Source: Octopus vulgaris (lineage: Eukaryota). From it: a DNA stretch of 64,000 bases. Both the position numbers and the translations under genes were made by a program. The notes beneath the pieces were generated by a model. That model was not told the DNA's origin. It ran no database searches and was given only the letters and a program-made list of their open reading frames with translations. This document shows positions 16,095 to 61,129 of the stretch, one piece after another. The stretch is taken from positions 79,732,001 to 79,796,000 of the forward strand of contig OX597820.1 of NCBI GenBank assembly GCA_951406725.2. The letters run 5' to 3'. Positions within the stretch are counted from its first letter, which is position 1, and every line of letters begins with the position of its first letter.

Positions 16095-18371
16095 TTAGAG
16101 TATGTTTAGTTGTGGTCTGTATTTTTGAATAAGATTACTTTCCTTATTTATTCGTGTTTGGTCTGTGGTGTTGTCCGAGCATTGGTATAGTGGGAAGACT
16201 AAGAATTTGGGGGACTTATTGTGTGCACAAAGGTCTAAGTGTCCACTTAGTGGTATCTGTCTTGTGGAGGGTCCCTCAGTTGTTGTCGGTGAACTGTCAT
16301 TCTTTCTCTGAGGATAAGGCTCGTTTGCCCTATGTAGTCTTCGTGGCATCCTTCACACCTTATGACGTAGAGTAAATTTTTTGATGCGCACGTGAAATTA
16401 TTTTTTATGATGAATGTGTGTCCCGAGTGGAACTTGTACGACGATCCCTCAATGAGGTGGATGCAGGTCTTGCAGTTGGGGCGACCACATTTTTTGATGG
16501 TGGGCGGTGGGTTTGTGTTGTGTAATTTTGCGTTGGTGAGGAGGTTTTTTAGGGATTTAGGTTGTCTCTTACTTTTTATTATTTTATGAGCTGCCGGTAT
16601 TTTTTTCAGGCGTGGGTCTTGATTTAGTTGTGGAATGTTGTTGTATATAATAGTGTAAGCTTCTGCATTCCTTGGGTTGTGTGTTGAGAGATAAGGGAGG
16701 CTATTTACTGTACTGTGGATGTGTTTGGGTTTTCGAAGGTCTTGAATGTTGATTGATTTGGCCCGTTCTATTCCGTTGTCTACTAGTGATGCCGGGTAAT
16801 GTCTTTCGAGAAGAATTGCCCTTAGTTCCCGGAGTCTTCTATTTCGTGTTGTGCCATTTGAGACAATAGTGCAGATTCTTCTCGCTAGGTTGAAGGGGAT
16901 ATTTGTCTTTGTGTGTTTTGGGTGATTGGAGGTGAATAGAAGGTATTGTTTAGAGTCAGTGGGTTTGTAATGGATGTCAGTTTCAATGTTGACGCCTTTT
17001 TTAATGATTAGGATGTCAAGAAAAGGGAGTTGGTCCTGACTATATTCCATTGTGAATTGAATGTTGTTATTTACACTGTTGATAAGGTTTTTGAAGTCTA
17101 TAAGTTGGTCGAGTGTGTGGGACCATAGGATGAGGCAATCATCTAAGTAGCGTTTCCAGTTCTCCAACAGGTATTTGTGGAAAGACTGGCCGTACTTATA
17201 TTTGGATTTTTCATAGATATGTGATTCCAGGTAGGCCATCACCAGGTTTGCATAGGTAGGTGCAACTTTCGTACCCATTGCAGTTCCTGAGACCTGTCTG
17301 TAAGTGTTGTTGTGGAAATACATGAAGTTGTTTTGCAGAATAAATTTGAGGCCCTCAATTATGAATTCTTTTTTAATTCTTTCCGGGATCTCATTGGGAT
17401 ATTTATCCAGCCAGAATTTAATGGCTTCCAGTCCATATTCATGTGGGATTGTGGTGTAAAGATTAATAACATCAAAAGAAACGATTAAGGTGTCTTTATC
17501 GGCATGTTTGGGGAGATGGTTTAATAGGTCCAGGTCATCTCTTACAATACTTGGAATGTGTTTCAGTATTGGCTTTAAGATGATATCTATAATGTTGCTA
17601 AGTCTGTGTGTTTCACAACTTGGGCCTGCCACTATTGGTCTCAGTTTGAGATCAGTGGGATGTGGTATAGTGATGCAGGTTGAAGTGGACTTTTTGCAAG
17701 CTTCTGTGATAATTTGACTCTTGTGTATTTTTGGAAGCCCATAGAGTGTGCTGGTTTTGCAATTAAATTTAGTAATGTAGTCGCATTCCTTTGCTGTCAA
17801 GTCATTCCGGTGTTGGTAAATGAGTGCCTTCAGATTGGTCATTGTTTTGGATTGCTGGTAGTCGACTACTCTTTCGTAGTATGTGGTATCCTCTAAAAGG
17901 AGAGATACAGAGTTTTTTATATGGCTCAGTATTCATAACAACGACCGTACTACCCTTATCAGCTTCCTTTATTGTGACGTCATGATTGTCTCGTAGCGTA
18001 TGGATGATTTCCCATCCTCTTTTACTGGTGTTGGGTTTGAGTTTAGGTTGTGGGAGTTCACCATAAGGGAAGTTGGAGATGTAATCGCAAAATTTGTCTA
18101 AGGTTTTGTTTTTGCCTTTTATGGGATTATAGTTGCTTTTGTTACAGACCATTGATTCGTCGTTATTATTAGTTTTCCTGTCAAAAAATTCCTCTGTGAG
18201 GCGTAATTTTCTGCAAAAGTGCGAGATGTCATCCTGTATTTCCCTCAGGTTAGGGTATTGCGGAGTTGGGGTGAATTTTAGTCCTCTTGAAAGGATTTTT
18301 ATTTGTGGTGTCGACAGGTTTAGGTTAGAAAGATTCACTATTTTTGGTTTTTCGGGGTTGGTATCTACCAT
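16095..18371 (-). pseudogene. PLE polyprotein: N-terminal domain, reverse transcriptase, Cys-rich linker, GIY-YIG endonuclease; two frameshifts (~17890, ~16270)
   Basis: IVNLS..ILSRGLKFTPTP; LRPIVAG; SFDVINLYTTIPH; YRQVSGTAMGTKVAPTYANL; WKRYLDDC; LPFLDI; CGRPNCKTC; LLYVIRC..YIGQT..LRERM..H; C-terminus ..KESNLIQKYRPQLN in ORF 16095-16349. Confidence 0.92.
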
Positions 18372-42674: not shown

Positions 42675-42735
42675 GATAAAACTCCGAGTCTCGGATGTCA
42701 GGGCGGAAATCCACGCTAGCATCTCTTCAGTTATC
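42675..42735 (-). ncRNA. Hammerhead-like motif, GAAA mutated to GAGA
   Basis: gataa-CTGAAGA-gatg...catc c-GAGA-ctcggag-TT-ttatc. Confidence 0.6.
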
Positions 42736-42796
42736 GATAACTGAAGAGATGCCGACGTGGATTTCCGCTCCTACATCCGAATCTCGGAGTTTTATC
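42736..42796 (+). ncRNA. Hammerhead-like motif, GAAA mutated to GAAU
   Basis: gataa-CTGAAGA-gatg...catc c-GAAT-ctcggag-TT-ttatc. Confidence 0.6.
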
Positions 42797-43000
42797 ATGG
42801 CTACCGAATAATTGTCATTATATTTAGAGATAAATTCCTTTATTTACATAATATCGAGGTCTCTTTCATTCTTTTGTTGTCTTGCCTTTTCTATCATTAT
42901 ATATATATATATATATATACAATTGCAGCGTGGAAGGTGTTTATAAGCCATTTAAGAAACACACAAAAGCCGTTCGATTCACTTCAACATTTAAGTTTAA

Positions 43001-43050
43001 TTTGTCAAAATATTTTCGTCGCTAAAGTCCGCGACCTGTTCACTGACAAA
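43001..43050 (-). ncRNA. Minimal type I hammerhead-like ribozyme, G3:C8 core
   Basis: tttgtca-GTGAACA-g-gtcgc ggacttta gcgac-GAAA-atat-TT-tgacaaa; 7-bp stem I and 5-bp stem II, both perfect. Confidence 0.78.
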
Positions 43051-43165
43051 AATCCGTGCTGCATCACGTTTCATGTTGTTTACGGTTTGCGACGTCCTGT
43101 ACCAATATATGCATATATATATACGCGTGTTTTTGTGTACACATATAAAAATATATATATATAAG

Positions 43166-49174: not shown

Positions 49175-49590
49175 TTGTTGTATCTTTGGATGGTCATTGC
49201 GCCAATAACAAACACAAACACTGGTTCAATTTTACTTCTTTTATTATTATTAGTTAATTCGTCAATATTTGACCAATTAACTAATCGGTTGTTTGATTAA
49301 CCCTTCGGTTAGTCAATCATTCAGCTTGGCTTCTCAAAGTTCTTTCGTCGTCATTCACGACCTCTTCAATGACACACCCTCTCCTCCAAGTTTGCTTGAA
49401 ATCTCTGATGTAGAGTGCGCATGTCATTGATGTGACCACGAATAGTGACGAAGGGACTAATAAATAAGTGATTGATTGATTAAGCAAGTGATTAAACAAG
49501 TAATCGATTTAATAGTTGGTTAAATAACTAATCATTTTATTAATAGCGAAGAAGTGAAATTGAACAAGTATATGTCTCTAGATACAACAC
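49175..49590. repeat. Old imperfect inverted repeat
   Basis: gttcaattttacttctt vs aagaagtgaaattgaac; tttgaccaatta vs tagttggttaaa; gttgtatct vs agatacaac. Confidence 0.6.
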
Positions 49591-49710
49591 AATCTGTTTT
49601 AACACACGAGTTCACATCAACAATTTTGCGAACCAAATACGAAAGCGAAAAGGAAAAATACTTCGAGAAATTTATCAAGGATAAAAGAAAGAATTTACCG
49701 TATTAATATA

Positions 49711-61014: not shown

Positions 61015-61129
61015 ATGCATATATGGGTACTTGACGTCACCAACAGTAAACAACATGAAATACGAAAACAAATGAGTTCAATACGCAAACAACGAGAGAA
61101 ACAAATGGAAAACAGGACAAGTAACATAA

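Follow-up and report, generated by a model that had tools for sequence, protein, structure and literature searches.

The closest described relatives of the motif analysed here are the minimal type I hammerhead ribozymes found in Penelope-like elements from metazoans (Cervera and de la Pena 2014, PMC4209133), which lie in pseudo-long terminal repeats (pseudo-LTRs), possess a short palindromic stem III, a G10.1-C11.1 pair and an NUH cleavage site, carry an unpaired base between positions 9 and 10.1 as a known trait, and are found in thousands of solo truncated copies; statements on this and all other publications refer to the accessible parts of the texts. Minimal Penelope-like hammerheads cut weakly or slowly, as dimers or with help of the element protein. 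A first-pass annotation of a 64,000-nucleotide stretch of Octopus vulgaris DNA (assembly GCA_951406725.2, contig OX597820.1, positions 79,732,001 to 79,796,000 of the forward strand; hereafter the window) had marked a hammerhead with an exchanged 3:8 core pair at positions 43001-43050, and this motif was followed up computationally. It belongs to a Penelope-like element, termed family A, and agrees with the published hammerheads in all structural features named above, whereas it carries G3:C8 and all readable cores in the 56-motif alignment of PMC4209133 begin with CUGA or UUGA. The extra base is G in family A versus H in the published consensus, one listed motif there having G as well.

In hammerheads, G12 acts as general base and the 2'-OH of residue 8 as general acid. 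C3:G8 is among the best-conserved hammerhead contacts, and natural variation at 3:8 is limited in the literature to U3:A8, reported as covariation in PMC4209133 and likewise by Perreault et al. 2011 (PMC3088659), whereas for the G:C inversion only an engineered mutant with partial activity is described. The single exchange G8C lowers activity about 10^5-fold, and C3G restores part of it. In a pairwise scan (PMC9901934) no change other than the G:C swap gave rescue within the CUGA turn, and the swap showed strong positive epistasis; in PAc, a Penelope-like element of Anolis (PMC11167929), C3G/G8C partly restores cutting, which needs the element protein, and insertion mainly uses uncut RNA as its substrate. 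The engineered C3G/G8C mutants (PMC11167929, PMC9901934, PMC8495972) contain the same 3:8 inversion as family A, the single exchanges being lethal to activity and the double exchange partly restoring it; the rescue invoked by the first-pass annotation is in print, but activity is regained only in part. These are laboratory mutants, whereas the inversion in family A is the natural consensus of multi-thousand copies. U3:A8 keeps a pyrimidine at position 3 and a purine at position 8 (two transitions), whereas G3:C8 takes two transversions and places C at the general-acid position. A report on G17 variants states, as data not shown, that G3-C8 works better without C17. No natural G3:C8 was found in full-text literature searches, which did not cover Lunse et al. 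2017 (where such rows may be contained); the accessible part of an octopus repeat annotation makes no mention of ribozymes, and that of a 2026 retrozyme preprint covers no octopus.

The hammerhead motif and its core in family A

The motif is read on the minus strand and is given 5' to 3' in descending coordinates. Stem I (7 bp, assigned from fold and letters) is formed by UUUGUCA (43050-43044) and UGACAAA (43007-43001). The core GUGAACA (43043-43037), in which G3 (43043) and C8 (43038) replace C3 and G8, is followed by an unpaired G between positions 9 and 10.1 (43036), common to all 7 related families examined, and by the 5-bp stem II GUCGC/GCGAC (43035-43031 / 43022-43018) with the closing pair G10.1-C11.1, whose 8-nt loop (within 43018-43035) varies between subfamilies. 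The GAAA box (G12, A13, A14 and A15.1; 43017-43014) leads into the palindrome AAUAUU (43014-43009), a stem III that is plausible only between two molecules, and U17 (43008; hammerhead numbering only), 3' of which the cut is predicted (43008/43007). The three-way junction layout with stems I and II and a palindrome for stem III is complete, and U4, G5, A6, A9, G12, A13, A14, A15.1-U16.1, H17 and G10.1-C11.1 are all present; the literal consensus core CUGANGA is replaced by GUGAACA, and the Watson-Crick pair 3:8 exists as G:C. All parts listed in the first-pass annotation were recovered at 43001-43050, although its architecture left the strand unstated and overlooked the unpaired G.

The minus-strand fold comprises stems I and II at -14.7 kcal/mol (z = -3.51), a value equalled by 1 of 200 shuffles; a plus-strand reading of 43001-43050 was rejected, as it gives a poorer fold and no core. 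Rfam yielded no match at gathering score across the window, and within 42850-43150 none of its hammerhead families matched at E ≤ 10. A hammerhead descriptor with positions 3 and 8 free gave 117 matches in 604,629 bases of fetched loci and 2 matches, none of them G:C, in three block-shuffled copies; because the loci were chosen for family A, the former count shows only the rarity of chance matches.

The 2.8 Gb genome was searched with a 22-base exact pattern of the core, leaving positions 3, 7 and 8 free, which gave 6,147 matches. GUGAACA was present in 93 of 100 among the matches listed, in 43 of the 44 readable cores from 50 copies, and in 30/30 fetched loci with identical endonuclease, 0.86-1.16 kb downstream of it. 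Contigs of four public runs from three organisms showed no alternative core letter at ≥ 5%. By the genome pattern matches and the identical-endonuclease loci, GUGAACA is the family consensus, the outcome on which the proposal had been staked beforehand, and the odd core is therefore not a product of decay in the window copy. The flawless helices, which had also been put forward against decay, prove little, since near-identity to the master sequence is to be expected of any young transposon copy.

With a shorter pattern, 314 copies without G3 were found, and a canonical C3:G8 subfamily within family A was discarded, as only 1/100 of these among the matches listed was C3:G8. Another 513 copies had G3 but lacked C8, with G8 in 26/100 among the matches listed (hand count). 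In older family A copies (81-90% protein identity) the motif was present in 5 of 14 loci, with G3 in 5/5 and C8 in 4/5.

Constraint after the swap was assessed in 141 alignments from 98 loci, from which loci that had been selected for their breakpoints or core variants were excluded. A second allele reached ≥ 8% at 0/42 core and stem positions, at 5/8 positions of loop II and at 14/147 others (Fisher p = 0.008 for core and stems; 0.026 without the loop), the nearest exception to core constancy being C8 to G in 6/111 copies. Three loci (L033, L017, L097) from other repeat families of the genome contain minimal hammerheads of the canonical C3:G8 type, with an extra A and the palindrome ACGU.

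The parent element and its sister families

Sequence upstream of the motif was common to five loci, three of which reach a GIY-YIG frame. The single open reading frame (ORF) has 1,025 codons and contains DKSG, reverse transcriptase (RT) motifs, CX3CX2C and, at its C terminus, a GIY-YIG domain above the Pfam cut-off; no Pfam RT match was obtained in the ORF, and the RT was recognised by motifs and homologues. The linker between RT and endonuclease reads CQSNCAVC in the translation P0003 and fits CX2-5CxxC, and the top-ranking protein homologue carries the name of an Octopus vulgaris protein. An identical 145-residue endonuclease is shared by 39 copies, which indicates that family A is young.

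Full copies are ordered 3' untranslated region (UTR), pseudo-LTR with the motif, start codon and ORF; in longer copies the hammerhead unit follows the GIY-YIG ORF at a distance of about 1 kb and immediately precedes the ORF start. The tail that some short copies possess corresponds to the first part of the ORF. Tandem pseudo-LTR-ORF and inverted arrangements are present, and head-to-head pairs and (TA)n targets are common, so that tandem pseudo-LTRs, inverted 5'-truncated copies and an optional 3' tail together give a Penelope-like layout. By described features, the trees containing no named clade references, family A resembles Neptune/Nematis (Craig et al. 2021, PMC8557442) in RT, CX2-5CxxC linker, C-terminal GIY-YIG, pseudo-LTRs, tail, inverted 5' copies and (TA)n targets; it is unlike them in its microsatellite-rich 3' UTR of about 1 kb and in a tail of about 60 bp versus 30-40 bp. 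A miniature inverted-repeat element or other DNA transposon, considered for the GAGATG...CATCTC likeness of the ends and the inverted pairs, was ruled out by the RT-endonuclease ORF and the pseudo-LTR layout, and a non-LTR retrozyme (tandem non-coding units) was rejected, the window copy being a solo fragment of a coding element. Retrozyme-like tandem pseudo-LTR arrays split by TA tracts were observed at L128 and L129 (G000:C28; 7 units in L129).

Sister families were found by searching with the RT region (64-67% identity). At the same element position, family B has the core CUGAUGC (C3:G8; 20 motif matches) and family C the core UUGAAAA (U3:A8) in 13 of 17 strict matches, its motif region being present in 23/30 loci. 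Among metagenome relatives the motif was present in 4/14 loci (3 by scan, L206 by eye), two with C3:G8 and two with U3:A8; none was seen in the other 10/14, several of which are without the 3' end, and no relatives were found in viral contigs. All 7 families have a 7-base core, the extra G, G10.1-C11.1 and GAAA, with U4, G5 and A6 invariant. Positions 3 and 8 are paired in 7/7, as G3:C8 in family A only and as C:G or U:A in the other six; an equally good result arose in 36 of 5,040 permutations, a figure to be taken as support and not as a p-value, since the families are related, the family C scan required a 3:8 pair and L206 was found by eye. Stems I and II covary between families A and B too. 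This covariation across families is the weightiest evidence of the analysis and supports the first-pass reading of a natural 3:8 swap.

Quick trees, for which 28 and 14 of 120 listed homologues were used, united A, B and C in one clade (Shimodaira-Hasegawa-like approximate likelihood ratio, SH-aLRT, 100), with A sister to B + C. All outgroups with a motif have a pyrimidine at position 3 and a purine at position 8, which, together with the position of A, marks G3:C8 as derived. Aligned globally, the A and B pseudo-LTRs (205 nt) gave a score of 54, against a mean of 46 and a maximum of 67 for shuffles; as the flanks align no better than chance, homology of the motifs rests on element position and spacing.

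Family B (L158-L164, e.g. G000:C1:59391000-59398999) is very young; its frames comprise 1,312 codons, it has a long insert rich in Asn/Ser, and its hammerhead has a non-palindromic stem III middle, AGAACU. The older family C (L165, L173-L202) combines its U3:A8 core with a 3-bp stem I and an AAUU palindrome. Related Penelope-like ORFs of 42-45% identity at L203, L207 and L211 have 3' regions that are tandem repeats or are without detectable hammerhead.

The window copy and its surroundings

The copy in the window is a 5'-truncated family A pseudo-LTR without ORF body (42919-43065, minus strand), with 1 mismatch to L003 and L008 over about 147 bases. A single base, in loop II, sets it apart from typical copies, and the exact window stretch was found in 25 copies. 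The ATG that opens the element ORF in full-length copies (frame MAYKHL in L115 and L117) lies at 42949-42951 (minus strand), and the frame here enters the TA tract. The sharp 5' boundary of most short copies falls at 43064-43066 (minus strand), 21 nt upstream of the core. At the element 3' end lies the (TA)n tract, the target microsatellite (42897-42918); on the far side of the insertion a longer TA tract starts at about 43105. The 5' end adjoins about 45 bp (43069-43112) with similarity to the terminus of a different TA-associated repeat (window positions 61017-61060, 86% match over 44 bases); the junction possibly stems from template switching between two families of elements. The first pass was hence right in noting a short insertion flanked by TA tracts, which consists of the pseudo-LTR fragment and these roughly 45 bp.

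To the left of the insertion, a near-perfect palindrome of about 120 bp (42680-42802) is probably an inverted pair of the end of another repeat; similar sequence flanks L030. Elsewhere in the window, weak tblastn matches to Penelope-like proteins at 16898-17767 (minus strand) represent a decayed RT remnant, and a weak match at 49574-49648 is similar to the ORF start of family B.

Cutting, competing explanations and meaning

Given the motif as observed, its position in the element, its consensus status, the 3:8 covariation and the constraint on core and stems within the family, we consider it probable that the pseudo-LTR of an active Penelope-like retrotransposon here carries a minimal type I hammerhead in which 3:8 was inverted from an ancestral C:G or U:A to G:C, and which is predicted to be a slow cutter. 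The RNA would cut after U17, slowly, through intermolecular AAUAUU pairing, probably assisted by the element protein, and most reverse-transcribed RNA would be uncut. As position 8 acts through its 2'-OH, its base may change with partial activity if the pair is kept. The distance from the predicted cut is about 57 nt both to the start codon downstream of it and to the apparent RNA 5' end upstream; this position would make trimming or silencing of element RNA a likelier role than the making of template.

The apparent RNA 5' end was deduced from the ends of copies: 50 of the 59 copies reaching the boundary stop at -1 to +4, 9 extend by ≥ 15 nt and none ends between, one of the three copy sets counted having been selected for reaching the boundary. 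The boundary lies just behind an ACTAAC-pyrimidine-AG motif (L117:1150-1181), often with an extra G in front (GAG before and ATG after the boundary), and corresponds either to a splice acceptor behind a tiny exon or to a (capped) transcription start; with both, the copied RNA would have held an uncut hammerhead near its 5' end, before the start codon. The ACTAAC-pyrimidine-AG motif was not seen at the corresponding place in families B and C, and the contigs of the four public runs contained no joint at the acceptor-like site, a result that has no bearing on expression, splicing or cutting.

Several observations weigh against a cutting ribozyme. Among 243 copies that break ≤ 4 nt from the cut site there is no peak at the site itself, with breaks exactly there in 4/30 by script and in about 12 of 100 listed breaks by hand count, versus 4-13 at neighbouring positions. 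For the AAUAUU duplex just -0.2 kcal/mol was calculated, and the best co-fold lacks it; in the 50-nt fold G3 pairs with U17 at a probability of 0.67, which would be an inactive form. At A9, normally invariant, C is found in family B and the metagenome relative L205, so that the clade tolerates odd cores. G3:G8 cores occur in tandem, in two units of L128 and one unit of L129, which suggests at least one round of copying of a broken core. In a viroid hammerhead, an extra G placed like the one between positions 9 and 10.1 was reportedly found harmful by de la Pena and Flores in 2001.

The strongest competitor, which we regard as unlikely overall, holds that the fold is kept for a non-cutting role, as a binding site for the RT-endonuclease, a dimerisation signal or a promoter or 5'-end signal, with negligible catalysis. 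It would agree with the uncut motif in inserted copies and the missing peak at the cut site, with the odd C9 cores in thriving relatives, and with a related element whose catalytic mutants insert normally in vitro and whose cut site is the end of no reads; non-cleavage functions were also left open by Cervera and de la Pena (PMC4209133). Against this, 3:8 is a tertiary contact of the active fold and was kept through three pair types, and U4, G5, A6 and GAAA are invariant in 7/7 families, as selection on the catalytic conformation predicts.

A further proposal, doubtful at present, extends the preferred account of a slow natural cutter. U17 in most of the clade may have allowed the swap, since the usual C17 would trap G3 (modelled pairing probability 0.985 for G3-C17 versus 0.67 for G3-U17); families A, B and C would then form a natural allelic series that tunes cleavage, and searches with CUGANGA would miss a sizeable class of ribozymes.

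That the ribozyme is dead, two independent substitutions having been fixed by drift in the master element, pairing by chance and spreading regardless, is improbable. Some Penelope-like clades do thrive without canonical hammerheads and a class of G3:G8 copies exists, but after the swap no subfamily variants arose in core and stems while loop II and flanks changed, and the older copies already have G3 in all five motifs and C8 in four. That the motif resembles a hammerhead by chance, or is a DNA hairpin of another nature, would fit the lack of an Rfam hammerhead match but is very improbable, as ordinary C3:G8 hammerheads of identical spacing occupy the corresponding place in related elements, and descriptor matches are rare in shuffled DNA.

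Judged by comparison of the sequences, the family-wide, derived natural G3:C8 inversion in a Penelope-like hammerhead is real, with comparative support for selection on the fold; the motif is probably a natural working ribozyme variant. G3:C8 is here the consensus of a still-spreading animal retroelement with > 6,000 copies, of a kind that Rfam and CUGANGA descriptors miss. Together with the sister families, in which the two remaining pairings occupy the corresponding place, it provides a ready-made comparative set for asking if cutting is required of Penelope-like hammerheads and which purpose it serves.
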